Below, in pieces: positions 2,061-21,071 of a stretch of 24,000 nt of DNA (positions are counted from its first letter, which is position 1; every line of letters begins with the position of its first letter). The position numbers were made by a program, and so were the translations under genes. The notes under the pieces are model-generated. The model was given only the letters and a program-made list of their open reading frames with translations. It was not told the origin of the DNA and did no database searches. Source of the DNA: Carnobacterium gallinarum DSM 4847 (GTDB lineage Bacteria; Bacillota; Bacilli; Lactobacillales; Carnobacteriaceae); NCBI RefSeq assembly GCF_000744375.1, contig NZ_JQLU01000005.1:2069496-2093495 (forward strand), in the 5' to 3' direction.

Positions 2061-2903
2061 TTATTTTTTATCTGTCCAAACAGGTACAGAAGAGCCTTTT
2101 GACGTTTCTTCAATCACTTTGATGGTTTCGGGTGATTGGTAAGCTTTTACAACTTTTTTGTAGGTTTCATTGTCTTTGTCTTTATTGTTTGCCACAATAA
2201 TATTAATATATGGTTTTGACGTTTCATCAATAGGTTCTAGGAAGATCGCGTCTTTTGTTGGAACAAACCCTGCATCCACAGCCATACCACTATTGATTAA
2301 TGAAATTGTTGTATCTTTTAAAGCACGGGCAGTTTGAGCAGCATCTAATTCTTTAATTTCTAAGTTTAATTTATTTTCAGTAATATCTTTAACTGTAGGC
2401 GTTTGTTTGGCAGCTGGATTAACTTTAATCAAACCGGCTGTTTGTAAAAGTAATAACGCACGTCCGCCATTGGTTACATCATTAGGAATTGCAACAATAT
2501 CCTTATCTTTTAATTCTTTTACATCTTTAATTTTTTCAGAATAGATTCCAAGCGGCGCAATAACAGTTTCGCCAATCGAAACTAGATCGGTTCCGCTATC
2601 TTTGTTATAGGCATCTAGAAAAATTTGATGTTGGAAAGAGTTTAAATCAATTTCTCCTGAACTTAAAGCAGAGTTTGGTTGATTATAATCAGTGAATTTT
2701 ACAATGTTTAACTCAATATTCTCTTTCTTCAAACGTTCTTTTACAGAATCCCAAACCTCCGTATTTTCACCAACAACTCCAAGTTTAACAACTGTGGGTT
2801 TCTTTGTATCGGCGGCCGTATTGCTACCACTACCACAAGCAGCTATAAATCCTACACTTAAAATTAAGACTAACGCTAAGATGATTTTTTTTACATTTTT
2901 CAT
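2061..2903 (-). CDS. metQ: Methionine ABC transporter substrate-binding lipoprotein (MetQ/NlpA family)
   Basis: 280 aa. Signal peptide with lipobox FIAAC-G, NlpA-family body. Last gene of a metN-metI-metQ operon. Confidence 0.85.
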   Translation of the reverse strand: MKNVKKIILALVLILSVGFIAACGSGSNTAADTKKPTVVKLGVVGENTEVWDSVKERLKKENIELNIVKFTDYNQPNSALSSGEIDLNSFQHQIFLDAYNKDSGTDLVSIGETVIAPLGIYSEKIKDVKELKDKDIVAIPNDVTNGGRALLLLQTAGLIKVNPAAKQTPTVKDITENKLNLEIKELDAAQTARALKDTTISLINSGMAVDAGFVPTKDAIFLEPIDETSKPYINIIVANNKDKDNETYKKVVKAYQSPETIKVIEETSKGSSVPVWTDKK

Positions 2904-2955
2904 TTTCTTATTCCCCTTTTAATTTAAGTTTGATAAAACACATATGAATGATCTA

Positions 2956-3642
2956 TTAATGACTAGTTTTACGAATTAAATAATTGCCGATTGCTTGACT
3001 GATAAAGACTAAGATTAAAATAATGATTGTTGCGACTAAGGTTACATCATCTTGAAAACGATTATACCCACGAGAAATAGCTAAATTTCCTAATCCCCCA
3101 GCACCAATTGCACCAGCCATCGCAGTTAAACCAATTAAATTAATGATGGTTAAAGAAGAAGCACGAATAATTCCATTTAATCCTTCTTTTAAATAAACGC
3201 GGAAAATAATTTCTAGCGGGCTAGAACCCATCGATTGTGCAGCCTCAATTACACCAGGATCAACTTCAACCAATGCATTTTGAATTTGTCTAGCAAAGAA
3301 AGGAATAGTTCCGATTGATAATGGAACGATAGCAGCTGTAGTCCCAATGGATGTTCCAACAATTAAACGTGTAAAGGGAACAATGACAGCTAGCATGATA
3401 ATAAAAGGAATCGAACGGAATAGGTTAATCACTTTATCTAAAATATTGTACAACGTACGATGTTCCAGAATGCCACCACGGTCAGTAGCAACTAATATGA
3501 CCCCTAACACAATACCTAAAACTCCAGCAATTAGAGCGGTCACTCCAACCATGTAGAGTGTTTGAATCGTACTTTCGATAAATTCTTCTTTCAAAGGTGG
3601 TACATTTTTAAAATAAGTGTTAATAAACTCCATAATTTTCAC
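2956..3642 (-). CDS. metI: Methionine ABC transporter permease
   Basis: 228 aa polytopic BPD-type permease (EAAQSMGSSPLEIIFRVYL EAA loop). Its start lies 3 nt from the metN stop. Confidence 0.85.
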   Translation of the reverse strand: MKIMEFINTYFKNVPPLKEEFIESTIQTLYMVGVTALIAGVLGIVLGVILVATDRGGILEHRTLYNILDKVINLFRSIPFIIMLAVIVPFTRLIVGTSIGTTAAIVPLSIGTIPFFARQIQNALVEVDPGVIEAAQSMGSSPLEIIFRVYLKEGLNGIIRASSLTIINLIGLTAMAGAIGAGGLGNLAISRGYNRFQDDVTLVATIIILILVFISQAIGNYLIRKTSH

Positions 3643-3645
3643 TCC

Positions 3646-4722
3646 TTAGCTAATTTGGCTCTTTTTTTGTGGGTAGGGAATTATTTTTTCTTCATGTGGA
3701 ATTAAATCTACTTTGACATCTTTAGCAGCAAGATAGGCTAACGCTTTTTCACGCTTAGCTGGTTCACCAGAAAGAATTACGATTAAATTCCCAATCGGTG
3801 TATTCTGCAAAATTTCAACATTTCCAAAAAGGATACTAGTAGAAATAGTAAATTGACTATATAAATGCGAAATCAGTGGTTCACAGGTACTTTCTCCAAC
3901 GTAAGAAATTTTTGCCAGAACATCATTAGGTTTTAAATCAAGTAAAGTAGGATGGTTTAAAATCGTTTCTACTCCTTGATCGACATGTGTTGCTGTGTTG
4001 ATAAAGTCTTTTGTAAGAGTTTTTTTAGGTTTAGTAAAGATCGAAACGAGACTACCTTCCTCAATAACTTTGCCGTTTTCCATGACTGCAACCTTATTAC
4101 AGATTTCTTTCACAACTTGCATTTCATGGGTGATAATAACGATTGTCAACGCTAATTTTTTATTTAATTCTTTTAGCAATTCAAGAATCGATAAAGTCGT
4201 TTTTGGATCCAAGGCACTAGTTGCTTCATCACAAAGGAGAACTTCTGGATCATTTGCTAATGACCGAGCGATGGCTACCCGTTGCTTTTGCCCCCCAGAT
4301 AATTGAGAAGGAAAGGCATTATGTTTATCAGATAAGCCAACTAAGTCCAATAAATCACTCACCTTTTTCTGGATTTCAGTTTTAGATAGGCTAGAATTTT
4401 TTAAAGGAAAGGCAACATTATCAGCAATTGTACGAGAATCCATCAGATTAAAGTGCTGAAAAATCATGCCAATTTTCTTACGAGCGGTACGAAGATCTTT
4501 TGGCTTAAGACTAGATAAGTTTTGCTTTACCACAGTCACAGTCCCTTTTGTGGGACGTTGTAATAAATTGATTGTACGGACGAGCGTACTTTTTCCAGCT
4601 CCGCTATAGCCAACAATACCAAATACATCGCCTTTTTCTACATGTAAATCGACTTGATCGACTGCTTTAACAAGTTGCCCCTTACTTTCAAAAGTTACTT
4701 CAATATCTTTTAGTGTAATCAT
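3646..4722 (-). CDS. metN: Methionine ABC transporter ATP-binding protein with C-terminal NIL domain
   Basis: 358 aa. Walker [10 protein letters not shown], signature LSGGQKQR, Walker [12 protein letters not shown], and a C-terminal regulatory extension typical of MetN. Confidence 0.9.
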
Positions 4723-5562: not shown

Positions 5563-6081
5563 ATGAACAAGAAAAAGTTAGATGCACGAGCTATTGCTAT
5601 TATTGGACTTTTAATGGCCTTAGAGATTATTTTAACGCGAGTTTTCTCGTTTGAAGTACCATTCTTTAGAATTGGTATAGGCTTTTTACCAGGAGTTATG
5701 ATTGCTATGATGTATGGTCCGTGGATTGCAGGGATTACAGCATTAGCAACAGATATTATCGGTATGACCTTATTGCCTAAAGCGATGTTTTTCCCAGGAT
5801 TTACATTGTCAGCTGTTTTAGGAGCAGTAATTTACGGCTTGGTTTTATACAAAAAGCCTAAGTCATTAGGACGGATTATTGTTGCAGTATTACTTGTTTC
5901 AGTAATAGTTAACCTTGGTTTAAACAGTCTATGGTTATCAATGATGTACGATAAAGCGTTTATTGCAATTTTTCCTGGTCGTGTCGTATCTAATTTAATA
6001 GGTACACCATTACGTGTAGCACTGATTTATCTTGTAGTTAAAAGTCGCGTGTTGGAACGATATTTGCAGCCAGTATTATAA
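5563..6081 (+). CDS. folT: Folate-family ECF transporter S component
   Basis: 172 aa, 5-6 TM small integral membrane protein (LDARAIAIIGLLMALEIILTR...). Preceded by the THF riboswitch; RBS AGAGGAG. Confidence 0.75.
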   Translation: MNKKKLDARAIAIIGLLMALEIILTRVFSFEVPFFRIGIGFLPGVMIAMMYGPWIAGITALATDIIGMTLLPKAMFFPGFTLSAVLGAVIYGLVLYKKPKSLGRIIVAVLLVSVIVNLGLNSLWLSMMYDKAFIAIFPGRVVSNLIGTPLRVALIYLVVKSRVLERYLQPVL

Positions 6082-6104
6082 TAAATAATAAAGAAACAAA
6101 CATC

Positions 6105-6146
6105 CAAAAAAGGCAACCTTATCAACTATAAGGTTGCCTTTTTTTC
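6105..6146 (+). terminator. Rho-independent terminator after folT
   Basis: Stem AAGGCAACCTT (6110-6120) / AAGGTTGCCTT (6130-6140) followed by a T run to 6146. Confidence 0.85.
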
Positions 6147-6162
6147 GTTTAAAATGAATTTG

Positions 6163-6195
6163 GTATATACAAACTAGTATATACTATTGTATAAT
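6163..6195 (+). promoter_or_regulatory. Candidate promoter and HutC/GntR operator of the glycosylasparaginase-PTS unit
   Basis: Two copies of the 8-bp palindrome GTATATAC (6163-6170 and 6177-6184) lie just upstream of a TATAAT box (6190-6195). The first sits in TTGGTATATACAAA, which resembles the GT-N-TA-N-AC cores of HutC-type operators. The direct repeat AATGAATTTGG (6153-6163 and 6193-6203) brackets the region. Confidence 0.4.
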
Positions 6196-6210: not shown

Positions 6211-6225
6211 AAGAAAGCGTTTTAA
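6211..6225 (+). promoter_or_regulatory. Weak candidate cre (CcpA) site
   Basis: AAGAAAGCGTTTTAA compared with the cre consensus WTGNAANCGNWNNCW gives 2 mismatches. It lies downstream of the putative -10. Confidence 0.25.
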
Positions 6226-6258: not shown

Positions 6259-7212
6259 ATGACCTATGGAATGATTGCAACTTGGCGAATGGCCTATGAT
6301 GGTGTGGCAGAAATGACTAAGGAGTTGCAAAAGGGAAAAGATGCAGGAGATGCTTTAGTAGAGGCAATTAAACAAGTTGAGGATTATCCTTTTTATAAGT
6401 CAGTAGGTTATGGTGGATTGCCGAATGAGCATTGTATTTTAGAAATGGATGCAGCGTATATGGATGGAAATACTTTCGATATTGGGGCTGTTGCAGGCAT
6501 TCAAGATGTGAAAAATCCGATTGCTGTGGCTCAATCTTTGAGCCATGAACGGTTTAATTCATTTTTAGTAGGTTCCGGTGCAACCAAGTATGCCAAAAAT
6601 GCTGGATTTGAGTGTCAAAATATGCTGACAGAACGCGCAAAACGCTTATGGGAGCTACGAATGGAAGAGATTCAAAAGCATAACCTAAGTCCTTACGATG
6701 GACATGATACGATTGGTGCAGTTTCCTTAGATATTCACAAAAAAATGGTAGCAGGAACATCCAGTAGTGGTTTATTCATGAAAAAAAGTGGGCGGGTTGG
6801 AGATTCCCCCCTATCTGGTTCAGGATTTTATGTTGATAGTGAGATAGGCGGAGCAACGGCAACAGGCTTAGGTGAAGACTTAATGAAAGGCTGCTTAAGT
6901 TACGAGATTGTCCGTTTGATGGGAACAGGGCTGCATCCACAACAAGCTGCGGATCAGGCTGTCTATCAATTTGCTGAAAAATTAACAAAACGTAAGGGGA
7001 AAGCTGGTGCTTTTTCATTAGTTTGTATGAATAAATCAGGTGAATGGGGTGTTGCTACAAACGTAGAATTTTCATTTGTTGTAGCAACAGAACATGAAGC
7101 AGCCGAGATTTATTTGGCATATCCTGCAGAAAATCAAACAACAAGAATTGAGATTGCCTCAAAAGAATGGTTGGCAGCCTATGAAACTCGAATAAAAAAA
7201 CCACTTGATTAG
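6259..7212 (+). CDS. Cytoplasmic Ntn-hydrolase of the glycosylasparaginase / isoaspartyl-peptidase family (N4-(beta-N-acetylglucosaminyl)-L-asparaginase-like)
   Basis: 317 aa. Autoprocessing site HD-TIGAV (Thr151 codon 6709-6711), GRVGDSPLSGSGFY and GATATGLGEDLM motifs. No signal peptide. RBS GGAGG 6247-6251. Confidence 0.8.
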   Translation: MTYGMIATWRMAYDGVAEMTKELQKGKDAGDALVEAIKQVEDYPFYKSVGYGGLPNEHCILEMDAAYMDGNTFDIGAVAGIQDVKNPIAVAQSLSHERFNSFLVGSGATKYAKNAGFECQNMLTERAKRLWELRMEEIQKHNLSPYDGHDTIGAVSLDIHKKMVAGTSSSGLFMKKSGRVGDSPLSGSGFYVDSEIGGATATGLGEDLMKGCLSYEIVRLMGTGLHPQQAADQAVYQFAEKLTKRKGKAGAFSLVCMNKSGEWGVATNVEFSFVVATEHEAAEIYLAYPAENQTTRIEIASKEWLAAYETRIKKPLD

Positions 7213-7230
7213 ATAAGAGGAGTGAAGCAA

Positions 7231-7953
7231 TTGGAAAATAAACGATTAGGAATTTACTTGGAAGTTTCTGATCAAATTCGTTCACGAATTAGTGATGGAA
7301 CCTATAGTTCAGCTCAAAAACTGCCTTCAGAATATGAGTTAGCCAAAGAATATGCTGTGAGTCGCTTAACTGTTCGCAAGGCGATTGATGAGTTAATTAA
7401 ACAAGACATTTTGATTAAATATAAGGGCAAAGGCACCTATATTATGACGCAACAAAAAATTCAAAGTGGTCGTGGTGGGTTACAAGGATTTACCGAGGCA
7501 GCAAAAGCGTATGGCTTAAGCTCGGAAACTAAAGTAATTGAATTTAAAAAAATAAAAAACATTCCAGAAGAGGTTCAGAAAACATTAGAGCTTGAAACTG
7601 GGCAAGAAGTCTATCATATTAAGCGTCTAAGAATTGCCAATCAAGAACCCATGACTGTTGAAGATATGTATATTGCTAAAAAATATTTGCCCACCATTAC
7701 AAAAAAAATGGCGGTAGAATCACTATTTCATTTAATTGAAAAAGAGATTGCGATTGCATATTCACATCAAGAAGTTGAAGCGATATTAGTAGATGAAGCA
7801 ATGGGGCAATTATTGCAAATCGATGTAGGACAGCCAATGTTATTAGTTCATTCAGTTACTTTTTCAGTGACTGGAATTCCAATTTTATATGATACTTCCT
7901 ATTATCGTGCTGATAAATATACCTTTAAAAATACACTTCATCGAATTAAGTAA
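7231..7953 (+). CDS. GntR-family transcriptional regulator, HutC subfamily (wHTH plus UTRA domain)
   Basis: The N-terminus KLPSEYELAKEYAVSRLTVRKAIDELIKQ is a GntR wHTH, and the C-terminal approx. 150 aa are UTRA-like. The track start is GTG 7222. I prefer TTG 7231, which lies 8 nt after GAGGAG (7217-7222). Confidence 0.8.
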   Translation: MENKRLGIYLEVSDQIRSRISDGTYSSAQKLPSEYELAKEYAVSRLTVRKAIDELIKQDILIKYKGKGTYIMTQQKIQSGRGGLQGFTEAAKAYGLSSETKVIEFKKIKNIPEEVQKTLELETGQEVYHIKRLRIANQEPMTVEDMYIAKKYLPTITKKMAVESLFHLIEKEIAIAYSHQEVEAILVDEAMGQLLQIDVGQPMLLVHSVTFSVTGIPILYDTSYYRADKYTFKNTLHRIK

Positions 7954-8028
7954 TCTTTAGTAAGTTTATGCATGGATTTAAATGTTAGTTAGATAAATAA
8001 AATTAGTTAAATTCGAGGAGGAAGAAAA

Positions 8029-8364
8029 ATGAGTAAGAAAAAGATTTATTTATTTTGTGATGCAGGAATGTCAACGAGTATTATGGTGAATAAAATGCAG
8101 GCAGTCGCGGATCAACATCAAATGCCTTTAGAAATCTCAGCTTATCCAGTAGCTCGTGCCATTGAAGTAGTCACAGCAGAAAAGCCAATCTGTATTTTAT
8201 TAGGTCCACAAGTTCGCTTTTTATTGCCAAAAATTACAGAACAATTTGAGCCATTAGGAATTCCTGTTGGTGGCATTGATCCTGAAATCTATGGCATGAT
8301 GGATGGCGAAAAGGCTTTAAAATCAGCATTAAAATTAATTAAAAGCAAGAAACAATCATCTTAA
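8029..8364 (+). CDS. PTS EIIB component, lactose/cellobiose family
   Basis: 111 aa. KIYLFCDAGMSTS with the phospho-Cys at residue 10 (codon 8056-8058). RBS GAGGAGG. Confidence 0.85.
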   Translation: MSKKKIYLFCDAGMSTSIMVNKMQAVADQHQMPLEISAYPVARAIEVVTAEKPICILLGPQVRFLLPKITEQFEPLGIPVGGIDPEIYGMMDGEKALKSALKLIKSKKQSS

Positions 8365-8419
8365 TTGATTGTTTTGCTAAGTCAGATTTATCTTTTGTCA
8401 AATTGAGAGGAGAGCAAAA

Positions 8420-9778
8420 ATGAAAAAACTTTTAGATGGGATGGAACGGGTTTTAATGCCGTTAGCTAAAATAATTGGAGAGAATAAATATTTAATTGCA
8501 ATTCGTGATGGTTTTTTAATTTCTACGCCAATGCTGATTATTGGTTCCTTGTTCTTATTAATTGCAAATTTTCCTTGGACAGGCTTTGGTGACTGGATGG
8601 CAAGTTTTCTAGGTGCAGACTGGGCAACAAAAATGTCTGTTCCAGCTTCAGCTAGTTTTGATGTGATGGCTATTTTAGCTGTTGTTGGAATTGGGTATAG
8701 TTTAGCGAAGCAGTTTGATATTGATGCAATTGCATCTGGTGTGTTATCGCTAGTCTTGTTTTTTATGGTGACCCCCTTCTTTACAAATTATACAATTGAA
8801 GGTACAAATGAGATTGTTAAAGTTACAAGTTTACCTTTAGAGTGGATGGGTTCAAAAGGACTTTTCTTAGGTATTATAGTTGCATTAGTCGGAACACGAA
8901 TATTTGCAGCAGTCATTAAAAAAGGCTGGGTTATTAAAATGCCGCCAGGAGTTCCGCCAACTGTAGTAAAATCTTTTGAAGCATTAATTCCAGGATTTAT
9001 TGTTATTTTTATTTTCTTTGTTATTAGTTGGCTGTTTACATTAACGTCATTTGGTAGCCTGCAATTATTTATTTTCAAATTCTTACAGACACCATTATTG
9101 AGTTTAGGTAATACTTTAGGAGCAATGATTATTGCGTATCTATTCTTACATTTCTTCTGGTTCTTTGGTATCAATGGTTCCAGTGTTGTAGGTGCGGTTT
9201 TTAATCCAGTTTTGAGAGCGTTATCAGTAGAGAATTTAGATGCGTTTAAAAGTGGCGCACCCATTCCAAATATTATTACAGGACAATTTCAAGATATGTT
9301 TGCTACATTTGGAGGTGCGGGTTCAACGTTATCTCTAATTGTTGTCATGGTTTTTGTTTGTAAGAGTCAGCGGATCAAAAAACTGTCTCAACTTTCCTTG
9401 ATTCCAGGTGTTTTCGGGATTAATGAACCGATTATTTTTGGCTTACCTATTGTGTTAAATCCAATATTATTAGTACCATTTGCTCTTGTTCCAACGATTA
9501 ATATTATTGTTGCTTACTTTGCTATGTCATGGGGATGGGTACCATTTACGAATGGAATTCAATTGCCTTGGACAATGCCGATTCTAATTTCAGGGTTCTT
9601 AGTGAGTGGTTGGCAAGGTGCTGTTTTACAGGGATTATTGTTTGTTTTAGGAATGTTTATCTACTATCCATTTATTAAAGTACTAGACGATCAATATTTG
9701 ATTGATGAGCAAAAATTATTAGCAGAAGAGGAAGATGACGACATTTCCTTTGATGATTTTGATTTTGATGAATTATAA
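8420..9778 (+). CDS. PTS EIIC permease, lactose/cellobiose family, with acidic C-terminal tail
   Basis: 452 aa polytopic protein. The N-terminus ...MPLAKIIGENKYLIAIRDGFLISTPMLIIGSLFLL is typical of CelB-type EIIC. The C-terminus is EEEDDDISFDDFDFDEL. Confidence 0.85.
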   Translation: MKKLLDGMERVLMPLAKIIGENKYLIAIRDGFLISTPMLIIGSLFLLIANFPWTGFGDWMASFLGADWATKMSVPASASFDVMAILAVVGIGYSLAKQFDIDAIASGVLSLVLFFMVTPFFTNYTIEGTNEIVKVTSLPLEWMGSKGLFLGIIVALVGTRIFAAVIKKGWVIKMPPGVPPTVVKSFEALIPGFIVIFIFFVISWLFTLTSFGSLQLFIFKFLQTPLLSLGNTLGAMIIAYLFLHFFWFFGINGSSVVGAVFNPVLRALSVENLDAFKSGAPIPNIITGQFQDMFATFGGAGSTLSLIVVMVFVCKSQRIKKLSQLSLIPGVFGINEPIIFGLPIVLNPILLVPFALVPTINIIVAYFAMSWGWVPFTNGIQLPWTMPILISGFLVSGWQGAVLQGLLFVLGMFIYYPFIKVLDDQYLIDEQKLLAEEEDDDISFDDFDFDEL

Positions 9779-9793
9779 GAGGTGGAAACAGAA

Positions 9794-10312
9794 ATGATAA
9801 AAGTGATACTTGTATTAAATCATGTTCAGGCTGGTTTTGGTAGTGATGAGAATGCTAGATTAGCCCCTGGTGGCAAGAAAAAAACTATTGGACCAGGAAT
9901 GACATTGGAGCCTTTGATTAAAGAATTAGGCGGAGAAATTGTGGCGACACTTTATTGTGGTGACCAGTATTTTCTAGAAAATCAGTTAGACGTTCAAAAA
10001 AAATTCATTGGATTTGCTAAGAAATTCGGAGCAGATGTCGTTTTGTGTGGTCCTGCGATGCACTATCCGAATTTTGGTGAAATGTGTGGTGGTTTAGCTA
10101 ATGCTTTTAATGAAGCGAATATTCCAGCAATTGCAGCAATGTCCATTGAGAATCCAGCAACTGAGAAATATAAATCCGTATGTCCAATTGTAAAAATGCC
10201 AAAAAAAGGTGGGATTGGGCTAAATGAATCCTTTAAACAAATGACTCAATTAGCCATAGCTAAAGGTCAAGGAGTAGATACAACTCAATTAGAAAAGGAC
10301 TTATGCTTTTAA
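9794..10312 (+). CDS. Stand-alone protein resembling the N-terminal domain of glycine/sarcosine/betaine reductase component B (GrdB/PrdB family); function unknown
   Basis: VILVLNHVQAGFGSDENA...GPGM...EIVATLYCGDQYF...VLCGPAMHYPNFGEMCG parallels the GrdB N-terminus as I recall it (VVHYINQFFAGIGGEEKA...GPGM...IVATVICGDNYF...AGPAFNAGRYG). It ends at TAA after 172 aa, far short of the GrdB Sec region. The track start is GTG 9782; ATG 9794 sits 8 nt after AAGAGGTGG. Confidence 0.55.
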   Translation: MIKVILVLNHVQAGFGSDENARLAPGGKKKTIGPGMTLEPLIKELGGEIVATLYCGDQYFLENQLDVQKKFIGFAKKFGADVVLCGPAMHYPNFGEMCGGLANAFNEANIPAIAAMSIENPATEKYKSVCPIVKMPKKGGIGLNESFKQMTQLAIAKGQGVDTTQLEKDLCF

Positions 10313-10336
10313 ATAAAAGAACGAAGGTGTAAGAAA

Positions 10337-11656
10337 ATGAAGAATTATCAACAAATTAGTGAGGCTGTTTCAGATCACCAGAAGACTTTTTTAGCTGGTT
10401 TAAAAAAAGTGATGCAAGTTGCAAGTGTGAAGGGAGAATCCTTGGTAGATGCGCCGTTTGGTGTAGAACCTAAAAGGGTCTTAGAAGTTGCTTTGGCTTT
10501 AGCAGAAGAATTAGGGTTTGAAACTAAATTGGTTAATAATGCGATGGGATATGTACAATATGGTCCAAATAATTCAGAGTATATTGGGATTGTGGGACAT
10601 TTGGACGTGGTTGAAGCTGGTGACGGCTGGAGTTATCCACCATTTGACTTAACTTTGGATGAACGTACTGGCAAAATATATGGACGTGGCATTTTGGACA
10701 ATAAAGGGCCAGCAATAAGTACGCTTTATGGCTTGTGGGTATTAAAGGAACTAAAAATTCCATTAACAAAAACAGTAAGGATTATTTTTGGAACAGATGA
10801 AGAAAGTGGTTCAGCAGATATTCCGTTGTATTTAGCCAAAGAGCAACCGCCTATCTATGGATTTACCCCAGATTGTAAATATCCAGCAGTTTATGGTGAA
10901 CGTGGCATGGTGGCTTTAACAATTAAAACAACATTACCAGCCCGTGAATTAGAGCAAATTCAACAATTAAAAGGAAACTTCACAAGAAGTTCTGTGCCAG
11001 ATAATCTAAAAGTACAACTGGCTAGTGGCGAATATAGGGTGGTTAAAGGAATTCGCGCTCCAAGTAATGCTCCTGATATGGGAGAAAACGTTATTACAAA
11101 ATTTGCTACTTTAGCTAGCTCACAGTCACTAATCACTGGAAAATTAAAAGATTATTTCACTTGGTTAAGTAATTCTTTAGATGGAAAGCATGATGGTAGT
11201 GGACTAGGAATTGACTTCTCTGATGAGGCCTCAGGAAAATTAATGCTAACTCCGTATGATTTTGAGCTTAAATCAGAAGAAATCTGGTTAACGCTATCAA
11301 TACGATACCCAATTTCAGTAACTGAAGCAGACATTTTAGCTGAGTTGAACCAGCATCTTCCTCTGAATAGCGTGATTGATGTTAGTAGAAGGATGCCTTC
11401 AACAAGCTTTCCAAAGGATCACCTAATGTTAAAGATAATGCAAGAGGTTTATGAGGCTTGTACTGGATTAGATGGAACGCCAGTTACTACTACTGGTGCC
11501 ACATATGCTCGAACAATGCCGAATATTATTGCTTTTGGACCTTCATTTCCTGGACAAAAAGGCATAGCCCATAATAAAGATGAGTACATGGATTTGACAG
11601 ACTTAATGAAAAATATGCAAATCTATGCGTTAACGATTGCTGAATTAGCAAAATAA
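10337..11656 (+). CDS. M20-family dipeptidase (PepV / Sapep-like)
   Basis: 439 aa. GIVGHLDVVEAGDGWSYPPF, GRGILDNKGP and FGTDEESG metal and catalytic motifs are typical of PepV-type M20A dipeptidases. Confidence 0.8.
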   Translation: MKNYQQISEAVSDHQKTFLAGLKKVMQVASVKGESLVDAPFGVEPKRVLEVALALAEELGFETKLVNNAMGYVQYGPNNSEYIGIVGHLDVVEAGDGWSYPPFDLTLDERTGKIYGRGILDNKGPAISTLYGLWVLKELKIPLTKTVRIIFGTDEESGSADIPLYLAKEQPPIYGFTPDCKYPAVYGERGMVALTIKTTLPARELEQIQQLKGNFTRSSVPDNLKVQLASGEYRVVKGIRAPSNAPDMGENVITKFATLASSQSLITGKLKDYFTWLSNSLDGKHDGSGLGIDFSDEASGKLMLTPYDFELKSEEIWLTLSIRYPISVTEADILAELNQHLPLNSVIDVSRRMPSTSFPKDHLMLKIMQEVYEACTGLDGTPVTTTGATYARTMPNIIAFGPSFPGQKGIAHNKDEYMDLTDLMKNMQIYALTIAELAK

Positions 11657-11658
11657 AA

Positions 11659-11704
11659 AAACTGCTCACTACATTTTATTTTAGATGTAGTGAGCAGTTT
11701 TTTG
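11659..11704 (+). terminator. Rho-independent terminator closing the glycosylasparaginase-PTS-dipeptidase unit
   Basis: Stem AAACTGCTCACTACAT (11659-11674) / ATGTAGTGAGCAGTTT (11685-11700), then a T run. Confidence 0.85.
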
Positions 11705-11731
11705 CTGGACTAGAAGCAAATTAGACTTTAG

Positions 11732-11797: not shown

Positions 11798-12529
11798 ATG
11801 AAGAAAAATTTAACAAGCTTTCCTTTGAAAATAATAGCGATTGTGGCAATGACGCTAAATCATATAGGACAGGCATTTCACTTAGGAGATTACTCAGAAG
11901 TGTTATTTTTTGGTACAGAGTTTATTGGGAAATTAACTTTTCCAATTATGGCGTATTTATTAGTAGAGGGAGCATATTATACACGTAGTAAATGGAAATA
12001 TGCAGGTCGATTAGCTATCTTTTGGTTGCTTTCGATTTATCCTTTTCACTTAATACATGCTTTTAATAGTGCATTTGGTCCAATAGAATTCGTTAATAAT
12101 ATCTTTTTTACACTTTTAATGGGCTTAATTTTAATCATCTTTTACGAGAAGACTACTAATAAATGGATACATATAGGGTTAGTTGTCCTATTTTCGCTCT
12201 TAACGATTATGTCTGACTGGAATTTAATTGGAGTAATCATTATTTTTGGATTTTATCGAATTAAAAATCCAATAGTAAAGAAACTTATTCCTCCTATATA
12301 TGCAACCGTATTTTTATTTTCATTAATGTTGCTAATATTTATGATTTCTCCATCTTCCGTTCCAGCGTATATCGTAGTATCAGCCTTAGGTATTTTAATG
12401 GTGATACCATTATTATTGAAATACAATGGTAAACGAGGGTATTCCCCAACATGGTTAAAATGGGGATTTTATGCCTACTATCCGTTACATTTGCTGGCAA
12501 TTTTTATAGTGAAGATTTTGTTCTTTTAA
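11798..12529 (+). CDS. TraX-family integral membrane protein
   Basis: 243 aa polytopic protein. The N-terminal LKIIAIVAMTLNHIG motif resembles TraX-family proteins common in Firmicutes. No other conjugation genes are nearby. Confidence 0.55.
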   Translation: MKKNLTSFPLKIIAIVAMTLNHIGQAFHLGDYSEVLFFGTEFIGKLTFPIMAYLLVEGAYYTRSKWKYAGRLAIFWLLSIYPFHLIHAFNSAFGPIEFVNNIFFTLLMGLILIIFYEKTTNKWIHIGLVVLFSLLTIMSDWNLIGVIIIFGFYRIKNPIVKKLIPPIYATVFLFSLMLLIFMISPSSVPAYIVVSALGILMVIPLLLKYNGKRGYSPTWLKWGFYAYYPLHLLAIFIVKILFF

Positions 12530-15510: not shown

Positions 15511-15588
15511 ACTTAATTTCTGTAGCAATCAAGAGTATGTTCTAAAACAATCAGCATACTCTTGACGGGAATCAAAGGAGGTAAGCTA

Positions 15589-17070
15589 TTGTTTGATGAC
15601 AGTGAAATAATTGAAATTAAAATTTTGCAAATTTTGGACACAGAAGAAAAATGGTGGCAAAGTCTTGAAATTGCCAAACTACTTAATCAGTCAAAATCAA
15701 CGACTCAAAAATATTTAAAGTTATTAAAGGAAAAAATTTCAACCTTTGATAAAGAGTTAGTAGATATAGAAATAAGTAGTAGCCGAGGAATCTTTTTTAC
15801 ACGAGCGCCATCATTTAATTTACAGTTTCTATATACTGAAATACTCAAAGAGCTCCTATTATATTCGGTTGTTGAAAGTTTTATTTATGATGGAGCATTA
15901 TCAATCACCCAATTTTCAATGGTTCATTATGTCAGTGTTACATCAATAAGAAGAAAATATACAATCATTCAAGATTATTTAGAAAAATTAGAACTAACAA
16001 TAAAAAAAGATCAACTTATTGGGGAAGAAAAGCAAATTAGATGGTTCTTAACTCATTTCTTTTGGGAAGTCTACCAAAGTTCAGAGTGGCCCTTTTCCAC
16101 TATTTCAAAAAATGAGCTAACTACAATTGTCAGAGATATTGAAGACAAGTTCAGTTTGCAATTAATTCCTGAAATGAGAGAACAATTACTTTATTGGTTA
16201 GCAGTGAATATCATTCGTACGAATAAAGGGTATAAGTTGCCAATTGATGAAGAAATTGATCTATATTTAAAAGATCATCCTGTTTTTTTTGAGTTTAGGG
16301 GAGTAATTAGAGCGAAATTTTATAATCCGATTCGGTCGGAAAAAGAATTTTTGGGGAATGTAGGTGAAGTGCAACATCTCTTTTTTCTATGCACGATTTT
16401 CCCAGTTTTAGAAGGGGAGGAAACTCTAAGCACAATTAACTATCAAATGCATAAAAATAAACAGACACAAATGTATGCTGCAACTCAAAGGTGGATCACT
16501 ATGTATGAAGAGTTATTTGATTCAATTGATGGTGATTTAAAGAAGAATCAAATCGAAAAAAAATTACTACGAATCCATAGTTATTCTTATTTATATAAAA
16601 TGGGCGATGATCTTTTTCATACTCACGATTATATCGATGATCTTTTTGTGAAATATCCGAATTATTCTAAAAAAATGAATCAATTATATCAACAAATACA
16701 ACCTTCAAATGAACTGGTTTTAAAAAATCAACAGTATCTAATGAAAGCATATATGTTACTTTGTTATGAAGAATTTGAGATGATAAACTATGAAAAAAAT
16801 ATTCTGATTTGTCTAAGTATTGGTGATGGAAGTACGTATGAAGGGATTATGAAAAATGAACTTAAAACCAAATTTCAAGATAACTATAATTTAAAATTTA
16901 TTTCTCAAAAAGAAAGTGCGGATATTTGGATTACGAATTTACCAATAACCAATCCTGATGATTCAAAGTATCAAGTGAGTGTAAATAACTATTTTACTAA
17001 AAGAGATTATAAGTATATTGAAAATTTCTTTATTGAAATTATTGGGAAAGCGTCTATAGCTGATAACTAG
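15589..17070 (+). CDS. Mga/AtxA-like (PRD-containing virulence regulator type) transcriptional activator
   Basis: The N-terminal EIKILQILDTEEKWWQSLEIAKLLNQSKSTTQKYLKLLKEKI is an Mga-type HTH pattern. It has a long helical middle and a C-terminal ILICLSIGDGSTYEG... segment resembling the EIIB-like end of this family. TTG 15589 lies 7 nt after AGGAGG (15576-15581); the track start is 15562. Confidence 0.55.
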   Translation: MFDDSEIIEIKILQILDTEEKWWQSLEIAKLLNQSKSTTQKYLKLLKEKISTFDKELVDIEISSSRGIFFTRAPSFNLQFLYTEILKELLLYSVVESFIYDGALSITQFSMVHYVSVTSIRRKYTIIQDYLEKLELTIKKDQLIGEEKQIRWFLTHFFWEVYQSSEWPFSTISKNELTTIVRDIEDKFSLQLIPEMREQLLYWLAVNIIRTNKGYKLPIDEEIDLYLKDHPVFFEFRGVIRAKFYNPIRSEKEFLGNVGEVQHLFFLCTIFPVLEGEETLSTINYQMHKNKQTQMYAATQRWITMYEELFDSIDGDLKKNQIEKKLLRIHSYSYLYKMGDDLFHTHDYIDDLFVKYPNYSKKMNQLYQQIQPSNELVLKNQQYLMKAYMLLCYEEFEMINYEKNILICLSIGDGSTYEGIMKNELKTKFQDNYNLKFISQKESADIWITNLPITNPDDSKYQVSVNNYFTKRDYKYIENFFIEIIGKASIADN

Positions 17071-17102
17071 TTATAACAAAATTCAATAATAATAATTATT
17101 TT

Positions 17103-17141
17103 AAAAAAACAAGGACTGCTTCAGTCTCTTGTTTTTTTTTG
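17103..17141 (+). terminator. Rho-independent terminator after the regulator gene
   Basis: Stem AACAAGGACTG (17108-17118) / AGTCTCTTGTT (17123-17133, one bulge), followed by T9. Confidence 0.75.
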
Positions 17142-17257
17142 TTGATAAGTAACGATGCGGGTACGACATTGTTAAATAAAGTTGTTAGTCTTTAAACATA
17201 AGCCTGCCTTACTCAAATGAATCAATAAGATACAAAATAGTCTACTTCTAAAAAAAA

Positions 17258-17290
17258 TCAGAATTAAGGTCAAGAAAGACTTAATTCTGA
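17258..17290 (+). promoter_or_regulatory. Perfect inverted repeat upstream of the synthase operon promoter (candidate activator site)
   Basis: TCAGAATTAAG (17258-17268) / CTTAATTCTGA (17280-17290), 11-nt spacer. TATACT -10 box at 15 nt-plus downstream (17315-17320), with only a poor -35 (TGTTTC). Confidence 0.4.
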
Positions 17291-17350
17291 ATGTTTCTAG
17301 AAGGTAGAACGTTTTATACTGAATGCATAGTAAAAGAAGGAGCGTGTTTA

Positions 17351-18661
17351 ATGTTTACTTTGCCAGATTTATTATTTAAAGGAGTGTCAATGGTTATTTT
17401 AATTACATCAATCATGGTGTTTTTTCATTTAGGTTTTTATACCTTATTAGCGCTAATAGGATTAAAAAAGCCGAAAAGAACATATGAGATAAAGTCAGAT
17501 AAAAATAAGTTTTTATTTATTGTCCCGGCCCATAATGAGGAAAAAGTGATTCAAAATTGTTTAGAGAGTATTTCACGCTTAGACTATGATGCTCAATTAG
17601 TGAATGCAGTTATTTTAGCAGATCACTGTGAGGATAGGACAGCTGAAATTGCACGTTCTATAAATAACTATACGGTATATGAGAATACCTATGCTGAGGG
17701 AGATGTAAGAGGAAAGCCTCACGTTATTGGAAAATATTTGAAGGAACATAGAGACATATGGTTAAAGTATGATTTTATCGTGTTTTTAGATGCAGATAAC
17801 TTAGTTTCATCAAATTATTTAAAAGAAATAAATTCCCAGTCTATTGCTCAACCTGAATATATGGTGATTCAAGGTTATTTAGATAGTAAAAATATCGGTG
17901 AATCAATGCTGTCTAGAGGATATGCGGCGGCGTACTTTATTACAAATCGAGCAATTCAATATTCAAAGCATTTACTTGGTTGGAATGCCTCTATCGGTGG
18001 TACGGGGTTTGCGCTTAGAACAGATTATATTGAGCAATATGGCTGGAATCCTAAAAGTTATACGGAAGATTTTGAGATTCAAGTTGAATTATCAATTGAA
18101 GGGAAAAAAAGCACGTGGAATCATTTTGCAAAAGTTTATGATGAAAAACCAAATACTTTAGTTGTAAGCCATGTTCAGCGGACTAGATGGTCACAAGGAC
18201 ATTGGCATATTGCATTTACAAAAACTGGCAAGCAACTACTCTCATTAGTGAAACCACAAGGAATTGTCAGTTGGAGCAATCGCTTAGAAACGCTTATTTA
18301 TTCTTATTCGATGTTCAGATCAGTCTGGCTCTTGTTTTTATTTATGCTAGTAGCTATTGATGTTAGACTTATTTCTCAACTTCCCTATTTCTTTTCATTT
18401 TTCTGGTTTTGGTTAATATTTGAAACAATCAATTATATTGTGATTCCATTTACTTACATCATTCAAGAAGGGAAAGAATACATGGGAAATTTTAATACAT
18501 CCAAAAAGATTTCAGAATTTTTTCTACTGTGGGTTGGTTATTTTTATTCAACAGCAGTGTATTACTTTGCTCAAATAAAAGGGTTCTTTACTTGGTTTTT
18601 ACCGCAAAATCATTGGCAAAAGACCGAGCATACAAGTCAAGTTAGTTCGGATGATTTATAA
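17351..18661 (+). CDS. Membrane-embedded processive family-2 glycosyltransferase (polysaccharide synthase type)
   Basis: 436 aa from ATG 17351 (RBS AAGGAG 17335-17340). N-terminal TM, then IVPAHNEE, DAD (17789-17797), TED (18062-18070) and QRTRW (18176-18190). At least 3 C-terminal TM helices follow. Confidence 0.8.
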   Translation: MFTLPDLLFKGVSMVILITSIMVFFHLGFYTLLALIGLKKPKRTYEIKSDKNKFLFIVPAHNEEKVIQNCLESISRLDYDAQLVNAVILADHCEDRTAEIARSINNYTVYENTYAEGDVRGKPHVIGKYLKEHRDIWLKYDFIVFLDADNLVSSNYLKEINSQSIAQPEYMVIQGYLDSKNIGESMLSRGYAAAYFITNRAIQYSKHLLGWNASIGGTGFALRTDYIEQYGWNPKSYTEDFEIQVELSIEGKKSTWNHFAKVYDEKPNTLVVSHVQRTRWSQGHWHIAFTKTGKQLLSLVKPQGIVSWSNRLETLIYSYSMFRSVWLLFLFMLVAIDVRLISQLPYFFSFFWFWLIFETINYIVIPFTYIIQEGKEYMGNFNTSKKISEFFLLWVGYFYSTAVYYFAQIKGFFTWFLPQNHWQKTEHTSQVSSDDL

Positions 18662-18694
18662 AATCCTAGAAAAGTAAGGATAGAAAGGACACTT

Positions 18695-19810
18695 ATGAAA
18701 AAATTCACAGTTATGGTTGTGATTGGAGATGATCAGGAGGCCTTAAAAATGGCTCCAATTATTGACAAGCTAAAGAGAGAGTTTGAAAAATTTAAAGTAA
18801 GCATTGTAAGTACAGCAAGTAATAAACCAGCAGTCAAAAAAATCCTAGGGCTGTATCATGTAAAAACGAATATCGATTTGAATGTTAGAAAAAGAAATCA
18901 ACAATTAAATGAATATATAGTGGCTGTGACTGCAGGAATTACAAAGGCCATTCATCATGAAAAACCTGATTTAGTCTTAGTTCATGGAGATTCTACAACT
19001 AGTCTAGGAGCTTCTTTATCGGCTTTTTATCAAAAAATTAGTGTTGGACAGATAGATGCTGGTCTACGCTATGGCAATAAATATAGTTCGTTTCCAGCTG
19101 AAATGAATCGACGTTTGACAAGTGTAATTGCTGATTTTCATTTTGTTTCTACAAATTCAGCAAAAGCCAATTTAATAAAAGAAGGCATTCAAGAAAATCA
19201 TATTTTTATGACAGGAAATACGGTTATCGAAACGTTGCCCAAAACAGTAAAAGAAAAATTTATCTACAATGAAATTTCAATTCATAGCGACAATAGTCTA
19301 ATTTTACTGTCTCTTGATCAACTAGAGGAAATCAATCCAAAATTAGAGGAACTGTATGCAGCTATTAAACAAGTAGTCGCAAAAAATAGCAAAGTGGAAA
19401 TTATTTATCCACTGCATTTAAATCCAGTGCTGCGAAATCATGCGATTGATACTCTATCAACTATAGAAAGAATTCATCTAGTAGAGCCTTTAGATGTTGG
19501 CAAGTATCACAATTTAATCAATCAAGCCCAATTAGTGCTAACAGATACTAGCAGTATGTATGAAGTTGCTACCAGTTTAAAAACGCCTTTATTGATTATG
19601 GCGGCTGACATAGATCATCCTGAAATAATTCATACAGGCGTTGGCAAATTAATTGAGATGAATTCGGTGACAATTACAGAGGAAGTTATGAAATTAATGA
19701 CAGATACTTTTTATTATGATTCTATGCTTTTAAATGAGGAAGTCTTTACGAATGGACTTGAAAGTGCGAGTGAAAAAATTGTGGAAGTAATAAAAAAACA
19801 AATTAGATAA
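18695..19810 (+). CDS. UDP-N-acetylglucosamine 2-epimerase (WecB/MnaA)-like protein with degenerate catalytic motifs
   Basis: 371 aa, colinear with MnaA/WecB (HGDSTT, AGLR, NR, HLNP and LTD blocks kept). GTRPE, GHVE, HRREN and DSGG-QEE blocks are replaced (see findings). Confidence 0.65.
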   Translation: MKKFTVMVVIGDDQEALKMAPIIDKLKREFEKFKVSIVSTASNKPAVKKILGLYHVKTNIDLNVRKRNQQLNEYIVAVTAGITKAIHHEKPDLVLVHGDSTTSLGASLSAFYQKISVGQIDAGLRYGNKYSSFPAEMNRRLTSVIADFHFVSTNSAKANLIKEGIQENHIFMTGNTVIETLPKTVKEKFIYNEISIHSDNSLILLSLDQLEEINPKLEELYAAIKQVVAKNSKVEIIYPLHLNPVLRNHAIDTLSTIERIHLVEPLDVGKYHNLINQAQLVLTDTSSMYEVATSLKTPLLIMAADIDHPEIIHTGVGKLIEMNSVTITEEVMKLMTDTFYYDSMLLNEEVFTNGLESASEKIVEVIKKQIR

Positions 19811-19830
19811 GGAATGGGGAATAAAAAATT

Positions 19831-19986
19831 ATGCAATATTCAAATGAAAAAATTGGAATCGAACTAAAAAGCAATACACAGAATCAGATTAAGCAGAAAA
19901 AAGGTCAATTAGCGGTAGTTAATGCTCTATTTTTACTGGCTTTTGTTTCAGTAGTCAGTACATTTATCTATTTGGCCTTTTTTTAA
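19831..19986 (+). CDS. Small tail-anchored membrane protein, 51 aa (not in the ORF track)
   Basis: ATG 19831 ... TAA 19984-19986. Sequence MQYSNEKIGIELKSNTQNQIKQKKGQLAVVNALFLLAFVSVVSTFIYLAFF has a polar basic N-half and one C-terminal TM. It starts 20 nt after the epimerase-like stop. Confidence 0.4.
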   Translation: MQYSNEKIGIELKSNTQNQIKQKKGQLAVVNALFLLAFVSVVSTFIYLAFF

Positions 19987-20050
19987 GAGAGAAAGGCAGC
20001 AATTCTGAAAAAGTAGTGGTTGTTTATTTAGCTGGCAAGGAGGAAGTAGG

Positions 20051-20728
20051 ATGAGAATAAAGAACCATAATTTTGCCAATGTGTATAGATTCTTATTTTT
20101 GCTAGTTTGTGGCTATGGACTGTATCTAAATTCTGGACTAGTAAATGGAAAATTAGAGCTAGGTTATCTATGGTTTTATACAATTTTAAGTAATCTTGTT
20201 TGTTTTATCTATTATTTTTATTTAGAAATACAGTCCATTCGAGGGTTTCCTTATCAAGAGACTTCAAGAATGAAGGGTGCTATAACAATGTGTATTACTG
20301 TGACACTGGTTGTCTATCATTTTTTACTAGTACCAAATGCTTTTGAAATGAACCCAGAATATACAATTTTTAGTTTGGGAAATCTGATTGTTCATTATAT
20401 TGTTCCTATATTGGTACTTTTGGATTGGTTACTCTTTGATAAAAAAGGCGTAGGTAAAGTGAACGATCCGATTCTATGGTTACTGTTGCCATTTAGTTAT
20501 TTTTTAGCTGTATTTATGCGAGCTTTGATTTTAAAAACACCTTTAGTTGGTAAAAGTTTATATCCTTATTATTTTATGGATAGTCAACAAATTGGAACAG
20601 CTGGGGTCGCAATCACAATCATTTTTTTAGTACTGTTATTTTTATGTATTGGGTATTGTATTTTTGGAGTGGATTTAGTTCTTTCAAAAAGAGAAATTCT
20701 AAAAAAGGGTAAGTTTTTTATTGATTGA
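20051..20728 (+). CDS. Six-TM membrane protein, probably Pr6Pr / FAR-17a/AIG1-like family
   Basis: 225 aa. FYTILSNLVCF and LIVHYIVPILVLLDWLLF resemble the conserved SN and H..P...DW blocks I associate with this family. RBS AAGGAGGA. Confidence 0.5.
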   Translation: MRIKNHNFANVYRFLFLLVCGYGLYLNSGLVNGKLELGYLWFYTILSNLVCFIYYFYLEIQSIRGFPYQETSRMKGAITMCITVTLVVYHFLLVPNAFEMNPEYTIFSLGNLIVHYIVPILVLLDWLLFDKKGVGKVNDPILWLLLPFSYFLAVFMRALILKTPLVGKSLYPYYFMDSQQIGTAGVAITIIFLVLLFLCIGYCIFGVDLVLSKREILKKGKFFID

Positions 20729-20766
20729 TTGGATAGTAGAGTGACTTTGATATGGAGGATTTTAAC

Positions 20767-20931
20767 ATGACTAAATTTGAATTTTATGAACGTCTATTAA
20801 AAGAACTTGAGAATGATTTCTGTTTTTTAAAGGAAAAAATGTATACAGATGAAGAGTATAGTAAAGTAAAAAATTTATTACTGGAAGTTTTTAGGATTGA
20901 GCTAACTAGTACTTCCCTAACAGAAGATTGA
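20767..20931 (+). CDS. Small cytoplasmic hypothetical protein, 54 aa (not in the ORF track)
   Basis: ATG 20767 is preceded by GGAGG (20753-20757). Sequence MTKFEFYERLLKELENDFCFLKEKMYTDEEYSKVKNLLLEVFRIELTSTSLTED, stop TGA 20929-20931. Predicted helical, no TM. Confidence 0.45.
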   Translation: MTKFEFYERLLKELENDFCFLKEKMYTDEEYSKVKNLLLEVFRIELTSTSLTED

Positions 20932-21071
20932 TGCCACTAGTTACTAGTTTCCATTTTGAATTTTACTAATTCAGCTTTTAAGTCAACTTGACCTGAAATT
21001 TGGTCATAAATAAGGTGGATTTGACAGTATACTAGATTTTGACTAACAAAAAAATTAGAAGGAGCGAAAAA

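Follow-up and report, generated by a model that had tools for sequence, protein, structure and literature searches.

The closest described relatives of the locus studied here are two systems for glycoamino acids from the core of N-glycans: the ega (enterococcal glycosylasparaginase) locus of Enterococcus faecalis and the alf-2 cluster of Lacticaseibacillus casei. Our locus is a group of six genes at 6259-11656 in a stretch of 24,000 nt from Carnobacterium gallinarum DSM 4847, which we call the window. We believe that it is probably the C. gallinarum ortholog of ega (we put this at about 85%), and its sequence reads as a catabolic operon for N-acetylglucosamine-beta-asparagine (GlcNAc-Asn) from N-glycoproteins. 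We did not find any literature on this locus in Carnobacterium.

The ega locus, OG1RF_10933-10939, was described by Combret et al. (Res Microbiol 175:104169), as summarized in PMC11160706 and PMC11976118. According to those summaries, the reported substrate in E. faecalis is the free glycoamino acid GlcNAc-L-Asn, and the phosphotransferase system (PTS) that carries it uses an enzyme IIA (EIIA), CelA1, that is encoded elsewhere. A preprint summary citing Combret et al. gives OG1RF_10933/10934 as a GntR regulator and a dipeptidase with a separate promoter, OG1RF_10936/10937 as the lactose/cellobiose PTS components EIIB and EIIC, and OG1RF_10938-39 as a pseudogene whose counterpart in other strains encodes a GrdB-related putative oxidoreductase.

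The alf-2 cluster of L. casei BL23 links AsnA2, a cytoplasmic glycosylasparaginase, to an M20 peptidase of the PepV type and a GntR regulator. It also encodes AlfH, a permease of the major facilitator superfamily (MFS), together with the alpha-L-fucosidase AlfC, AsdA and SugK, a kinase of the ROK family (PMC6960285). AsnA2 is a proven cytoplasmic glycosylasparaginase, uptake requires the 6'-fucose, and there is no growth on GlcNAc-Asn (PMC6960285). The first-pass annotation of the window, made from the sequence alone, had described alf-2 as a glycosylasparaginase, PepV and GntR regulator with a permease, a fucosidase and a kinase, which matches the published cluster. It had also stated that it knew of no described PTS for glycoamino acids of this kind, and this is out of date: Combret et al. 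(2023/24), as summarized, described one, and the 2020 paper on alf-2 already drew PTS-linked asnA2 clusters of Latilactobacillus sakei and L. curvatus in its Fig. 7 (PMC6960285). The GlcNAc-Asn PTS system is a known one, published in 2023 for E. faecalis, and the claim of novelty is refuted.

Gene content, identity and candidate operator of the locus

A check of the open reading frames (ORFs) in the window placed six co-directional ORFs on the + strand, each at the coordinates that had been claimed for it (Table 1). Their order is asparaginase, regulator, EIIB, EIIC, GrdB-like protein and dipeptidase, behind one promoter and operator. The gaps between them are 18, 75, 55, 15 and 24 nt once starts at 7231 and 9794 are adopted. 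For the regulator, the start is most likely the TTG at 7231 and not the GTG at 7222 where the ORF opens, with a ribosome-binding site (RBS) AAGAGGAG at 7215-7222. The GrdB-like protein most likely starts at the ATG at 9794 (the ORF opens at 9782), which gives the 172-aa product found in NCBI. Compared with shuffled controls, both bounding terminators fold strongly, at -21.6 kcal/mol (z -9.3) for 6100-6150 and -29.9 kcal/mol (z -9.2) for 11655-11710. The first of them sits 3' of a folT-like gene (5563-6081) for an energy-coupling factor (ECF) S-component of the FolT family, which is unrelated to the locus. The gene families, the gaps of 15-75 nt and the two terminators of the first-pass annotation all agree with these checks and with the profile matches.

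A genome scan with the asparaginase gave 241 loci, and 80 of them went into a tblastn survey. The E. faecalis locus is outside these 80, and we reached it through a search with EIIC (cluster P0132, 75% identity) and then its contig (L081). The gene order on this contig is GntR, M20, Asparaginase_2, IIB, IIC and GRDB, which is the published ega layout. By BLASTP, the identity of the window proteins to those of this locus is 72.5% over 313 of 317 aa for the asparaginase, 75% over 109 aa for EIIB, 75% over 440 aa for EIIC and, over the full length, 68% for the GrdB-like protein, 55% for the regulator and 54% for the M20 dipeptidase. With 54-75% full-length identity to an ega-layout locus and a shared promoter operator, the proposal of a PTS-based locus for GlcNAc-Asn utilization is supported.

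The putative operator is a pair of palindromic boxes that overlap the promoter. Matches to GTMTAKAC, which we take to be the consensus of the HutC subfamily, occur in the 24 kb window only at these two boxes. The exact paired box is present in 47 of 82 related loci, or 49 of 84 when Carnobacterium maltaromaticum and Bacillus sp. APMAM are included, and these belong to Enterococcus, Vagococcus, Carnobacterium and Bacillus. By our own estimate, about 0.01 such pairs are expected by chance over the 1.3 Mb. In E. faecalis the paired boxes are at 4391-4412 and 6607-6628 of the contig: a near-identical element, GTATATACAAAACAGTATATAC, precedes the asparaginase gene, a related element precedes the regulator gene, and the P_egaG region has the same geometry of box and -10 as the window. 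In E. faecalis and related loci, the pair precedes the asparaginase gene by 60-90 nt, precedes the regulator gene, or does both, and wherever we checked its position against gene maps it was before the asparaginase gene or the regulator-dipeptidase unit. Bacillus sp. APMAM has the same pair upstream of a PTS_IIA gene. We consider GTATATAC-N6-GTATATAC to be a strong candidate for the EgaR operator. Because the window has a single operator, the regulator is predicted to be autoregulated within one operon.

There is also a weak element resembling a catabolite-responsive element (cre) in the leader. C. maltaromaticum and E. faecalis have its AAGCGTT core at the corresponding place, and cre matches with at most two mismatches are no more numerous in the window than chance predicts (25 versus 28.6 expected). 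A near-perfect cre-like palindrome, TGAGAGCGTTATCA (one mismatch), occurs at 9213-9226 within the EIIC coding sequence, and sites of this kind are likewise no more frequent in the window than expected by chance.

Table 1. Features of the locus and of the downstream part of the window
Feature	Coordinates	Strand	Details
Intrinsic terminator, 5' boundary of the locus	6105..6146	.	17-bp perfect stem, U/A tracts on both sides
Putative EgaR-type operator	6163..6184	.	Two palindromic HutC-family boxes, GTATATAC-N6-GTATATAC
Sigma-70-like promoter	6166..6195	+	TATACA-18-TATAAT; 10/12 consensus match; operator overlaps
Weak cre-like element	6212..6225	.	AGAAAGCGTTTTAA, two mismatches to TGWAANCGNTNWCA; between -10 and RBS
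Cytoplasmic glycosylasparaginase, EgaG / L. casei AsnA2 ortholog	6259..7212	+	Asparaginase_2 PF01112, E 7e-60
GntR/HutC (UTRA) repressor, EgaR ortholog	7231..7953	+	GntR + UTRA; NF041547 GntR_LSA1692 equivalog, 360.7 bits, cutoff 275
PTS EIIB, lactose/cellobiose family, EgaB ortholog	8029..8364	+	PF02302 (PTS_IIB)
PTS EIIC, lactose/cellobiose family, EgaC ortholog	8420..9778	+	PTS_EIIC; TIGR00410, 441 bits
GrdB-N-terminal-like protein without selenocysteine	9794..10312	+	NF041545 GrdB_like_no_Se, 214.6 bits, cutoff 175
M20 PepV/Sapep-type dipeptidase, counterpart of ega dipeptidase and alf-2 PepV	10337..11656	+	Peptidase_M20; TIGR01887 Sapep family, 390.6 bits
Intrinsic terminator closing the operon	11659..11704	+	21-bp stem and U tract
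Mga-like regulator	15562-17070	+	
GT2 glycosyltransferase	17291-18661	+	
UDP-GlcNAc 2-epimerase	18695-19810	+	
225-aa ORF without Pfam match	20051-20728	+	
928-aa surface protein with leucine-rich repeats (LRR) and MucBP	21039-23825	+	

The hydrolase, the PTS and the GrdB-like protein

At 100% identity, the asparaginase matches the C. gallinarum protein listed in NCBI as 'N(4)-(beta-N-acetylglucosaminyl)-L-asparaginase'. Its closest solved relative in the PDB is the Flavobacterium glycosylasparaginase, at 180 bits, versus at most 112 bits for isoaspartyl peptidase/asparaginase structures. In glycosylasparaginases (EC 3.5.1.26), autoproteolysis at a His-Asp-Thr site leaves a Thr nucleophile at the new N terminus. 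The motif in the window enzyme is H149-D150-T151, in which T151 aligns with T152 of the Flavobacterium enzyme, and the HDT site is invariant among 10 homologs. W9, R179 and D182 align with W11, R180 and D183 of the Flavobacterium enzyme and are invariant in the homolog alignment. In the Flavobacterium and human structures, the Arg and Asp bind the Asn moiety and the N-terminal Trp stacks on the GlcNAc. The window enzyme has no signal peptide, because the protein begins directly at the mature-enzyme region. With the HDT site present and no signal peptide, the earlier call of a cytoplasmic N-terminal nucleophile (Ntn) hydrolase with an HD-T site holds. Hydrolysis of GlcNAc-Asn by this product is predicted by analogy, as the activity is proven for L. 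casei AsnA2 and reported for EgaG.

None of the ORFs of at least 100 aa in the 24 kb window matched a PTS EIIA family, in line with the earlier statement that no EIIA is encoded locally. The EIIA of the ega system, CelA1, is encoded apart from its locus, and this would account for the absence of a local EIIA in the window. In Bacillus sp. APMAM (L084, 2068-7837), a PTS_IIA gene (PF02255) is directly upstream of the asparaginase gene and the locus otherwise has the gene order of the window, so that by its gene content it is a predicted self-contained EIIABC version of the locus. This local EIIA supports the idea that the PTS of the window borrows its EIIA from elsewhere.

For the GrdB-like protein, the NCBI entry with 100% identity is 'GrdB-related putative oxidoreductase [C. 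gallinarum]', and its counterpart in the ega locus is the 'putative oxidoreductase' gene. That label comes only from likeness to the N-terminal part of GrdB, and we regard it as unsupported. The protein covers only positions 1-155 of the 347 in the GRDB Pfam profile, and it is far below the cutoffs of the GrdB/GrdF/GrdH models (for example, 93 versus 800). We rejected a true GrdB reductase subunit, which is about 430 aa, because the product is only 172 aa and the C-terminal selenocysteine half is absent. The AlphaFold2 (AF2) model has an alpha/beta fold with a mean confidence (pLDDT) of 97. A Foldseek search against the PDB gave no solved-structure match at E<=1e-3, only generic flavodoxin/CheY-like similarities. 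Among 40 homologs, C55 is invariant and C85 is nearly so. Both the regulator and the GrdB-like protein are above the cutoffs of the equivalogs GntR_LSA1692 and GrdB_like_no_Se, and the accessions of the two (NF041547 and NF041545) are nearly adjacent, which suggests that the curators built both from the same conserved neighborhood. The product, 6-P-GlcNAc-amine or glycosylamine, is one conceivable target of this flavodoxin-fold protein, which might instead be an accessory of the PTS.

Proposed pathway and alternatives

The pathway relies on analogy with E. faecalis and L. casei for its substrate and phosphorylation, for the inducer and for the distant EIIA. With no substrate present, the GntR/HutC repressor would occupy the single promoter at 6163-6195 by binding its paired GTATATAC boxes, and GlcNAc-Asn would lift the repression. 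EIIC and EIIB would import and phosphorylate GlcNAc-Asn, served by an EIIA of the lactose/cellobiose type from another part of the genome. The autoprocessed Ntn hydrolase, with T151 as the nucleophile, would cut the N-glycosidic amide to give aspartate and 6-P-GlcNAc-amine. The amine would then decay to GlcNAc-6-P and ammonia, and the GlcNAc-6-P would go on to the normal NagA/NagB route. In E. faecalis, GlcNAc-Asn reportedly releases EgaR in electrophoretic mobility shift assays (EMSA), the PTS is said to phosphorylate the glycoamino acid, and EgaG is said to give aspartate and 6-P-GlcNAc-amine. The ega system also reportedly aids virulence of E. faecalis in Galleria.

For this locus itself, the sequence shows the gene content and the orthology, the conservation of the operator and of the residues for catalysis and substrate binding, and the limits of the operon. 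Two things weigh against calling it ega. The gene order is unlike that of E. faecalis, with the regulator inside one operon and not in one of two units, and the regulator and dipeptidase share only about 55% identity with those of E. faecalis, which leaves room for a different effector or substrate range. The two transcription units of ega are not seen in the window, which has a single operon in another order, and we consider this trait to be organizational rather than functional.

An alternative that we consider improbable is that the locus imports short peptides of the form X-Asn(GlcNAc) or Asn(GlcNAc)-X, and that the M20 enzyme frees the alpha-amino or alpha-carboxyl group before the asparaginase acts, with the GrdB-like protein as an accessory. 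The nearest solved structures to the M20 dipeptidase are those of PepV (1LFW) and Sapep (3KHX), and about 70 of the 80 surveyed loci, some without a PTS among them, have its gene linked to that of the asparaginase. However, we know of no PTS that carries peptides. Glycosylasparaginases require free alpha-amino and alpha-carboxyl groups on the substrate, which would give such a peptidase something to do, and the alf-2 authors, who note that asnA2 always accompanies the closest relatives of PepV, propose a functional link (PMC6960285). On the other hand, the L. casei pepV mutant grew normally on 6'FN-Asn (PMC6960285), and the substrate reported for E. faecalis, in the summaries cited above, is the free glycoamino acid. 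Since pepV is dispensable for 6'FN-Asn yet always linked to asnA2, the trimming of dipeptides or glycopeptides, which the first-pass annotation had placed before the amide cleavage, stays hypothetical; the M20 enzyme might be a glyco-dipeptidase that extends the pathway to short N-glycopeptides. We also consider it unlikely, if somewhat less so, that the GrdB-like and M20 genes encode undescribed steps of glycoamino-acid catabolism.

It is also conceivable that the locus combines two unrelated functions, in which an isoaspartyl dipeptidase or L-asparaginase works with the M20 enzyme on beta-aspartyl peptides and EIIB and EIIC are a transporter for cellobiose or chitobiose. The EIIC is indeed just past the NCBIfam cutoff for 'cellobiose IIC' (441.5 versus 434.45 bits), and the only NCBIfam match of the hydrolase is beta-aspartyl-peptidase. 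However, that match scores 112 bits versus a cutoff of 567, and we rejected an isoaspartyl-peptidase identity because the scores are far below the cutoff. The higher PDB scores of glycosylasparaginases, the 72-75% identity to a locus that matches E. faecalis ega, the placement of all six genes behind one operator-bearing promoter and between two terminators, and the linkage that is conserved across genera all argue against two functions, which we find very hard to believe. An ega-type operon for GlcNAc-Asn is the reading that we prefer.

Related loci and comparison with known systems

The first-pass annotation had suggested a neighborhood survey of this asparaginase family, and in the 80 loci the linkage of the genes is conserved across genera: the six families co-occur in Enterococcus, Vagococcus, Lactococcus and lactobacilli. 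About 30 of the 80 have the enterococcal order GntR-M20-Asp-IIB-IIC(-GrdB-like). Nine have a lactobacillus order, Asp-GntR-GrdB-like-IIC-M20 (L021, L055, L057, L062, L064, L069, L073, L074 and L076), and an EIIB gene was not detected in these at tblastn E<=1e-10 and coverage >=50%. The IIC and GrdB-like proteins of the lactobacillus-order loci are only 33-48% identical to those of the window (about 45% for IIC and about 35% for GrdB-like), and this PTS block may be of a different, older lineage than the enterococcal and carnobacterial one. The order of the window is in none of the 80 loci; it is found in C. maltaromaticum and Bacillus sp. APMAM.

Asparaginase and M20 genes occur without a PTS in about 25 of the 80 loci. 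One of these variants, in Enterococcus aquimarinus (L009, 5745-12657), has an operator, a YitT/DUF2179 membrane protein, M20, asparaginase, a GHL6-family glycosyl hydrolase, a ROK kinase and GntR, and its logic is like that of alf-2. The YitT-family protein occupies the slot where a transporter is expected. L008 and L014 are probably the same non-PTS variant.

Around the locus, a gene for a TraX-family membrane protein (11798-12529) lies between the operon terminator and a DUF218 gene. The region downstream of the locus in C. maltaromaticum (L083) has the same DUF218-NUDIX-OsmC synteny as the window, with the TraX gene absent, so that M20 is followed by DUF218, NUDIX and OsmC. Upstream, at 2061-4722 on the - strand, is a MetNIQ-type methionine ATP-binding cassette (ABC) transporter (NlpA lipoprotein, permease and ATPase with a NIL domain) that is unrelated to the locus. 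The block at 15562-23825 may be a regulated cluster for a surface glycan and adhesin.

The locus has the linkage of AsnA2, PepV and GntR in common with alf-2, as well as the substrate class of N-glycan core glycoamino acids. In alf-2, uptake and phosphorylation are divided between AlfH and SugK, whereas one PTS would do both in the window. The families of AlfC (an alpha-1,6-fucosidase), AlfH (an MFS permease), SugK and AsdA are not present among the ORFs of the locus or of the window, which bears out the earlier view that there is no fucosidase and that a PTS stands in place of the permease and kinase. We rejected membership in alf-2 because these four defining genes are absent. The asnA2 locus of L. 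sakei (LSA1689-LSA1693) resembles the window in having the asparaginase first, the regulator second, and then a lactose/cellobiose EIIC and M20. The NCBIfam model GntR_LSA1692 is named after the L. sakei regulator, and there is a GrdB-like gene in the related L. graminis locus. The Elizabethkingia/Flavobacterium meningosepticum glycosylasparaginase (PDB 1AYY, 2GAW, 1P4K and 9GAA) shares with the window enzyme the HDT site and the Trp, Arg and Asp that bind the substrate, but it carries a signal peptide (PMC6960285) and the window enzyme does not. By the ega model, the window enzyme would also meet a phosphorylated substrate, unlike the Elizabethkingia enzyme.

As a discovery the locus is of little value, because the system was published in E. 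faecalis and anticipated by the alf-2 and L. sakei asnA2 work, and the enzyme is already named in public annotation. Its value is comparative: a candidate operator, GTATATAC-N6-GTATATAC, that is conserved across many genera, and two conserved genes, for the GrdB-like protein and the M20 dipeptidase, that are still without a role. The ega locus of E. faecalis has the same six gene families as the window and the same paired GTATATAC operator over the promoter, and an EIIA gene is missing from both. The two differ in that ega has two transcription units with two operators (regulator-dipeptidase and asparaginase-IIB-IIC-GrdB-like), whereas the window has one unit with one operator, and in that the GrdB-like gene is a pseudogene in OG1RF but intact in the window. 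If our reading is true, Carnobacteriaceae associated with meat, fish and animals also have the ega system, with the operon laid out differently, and if the GrdB-like and M20 genes do encode undescribed steps, the single-operon layout of Carnobacterium and Bacillus, in which the GrdB-like gene is intact, would suit the search for them better than OG1RF.

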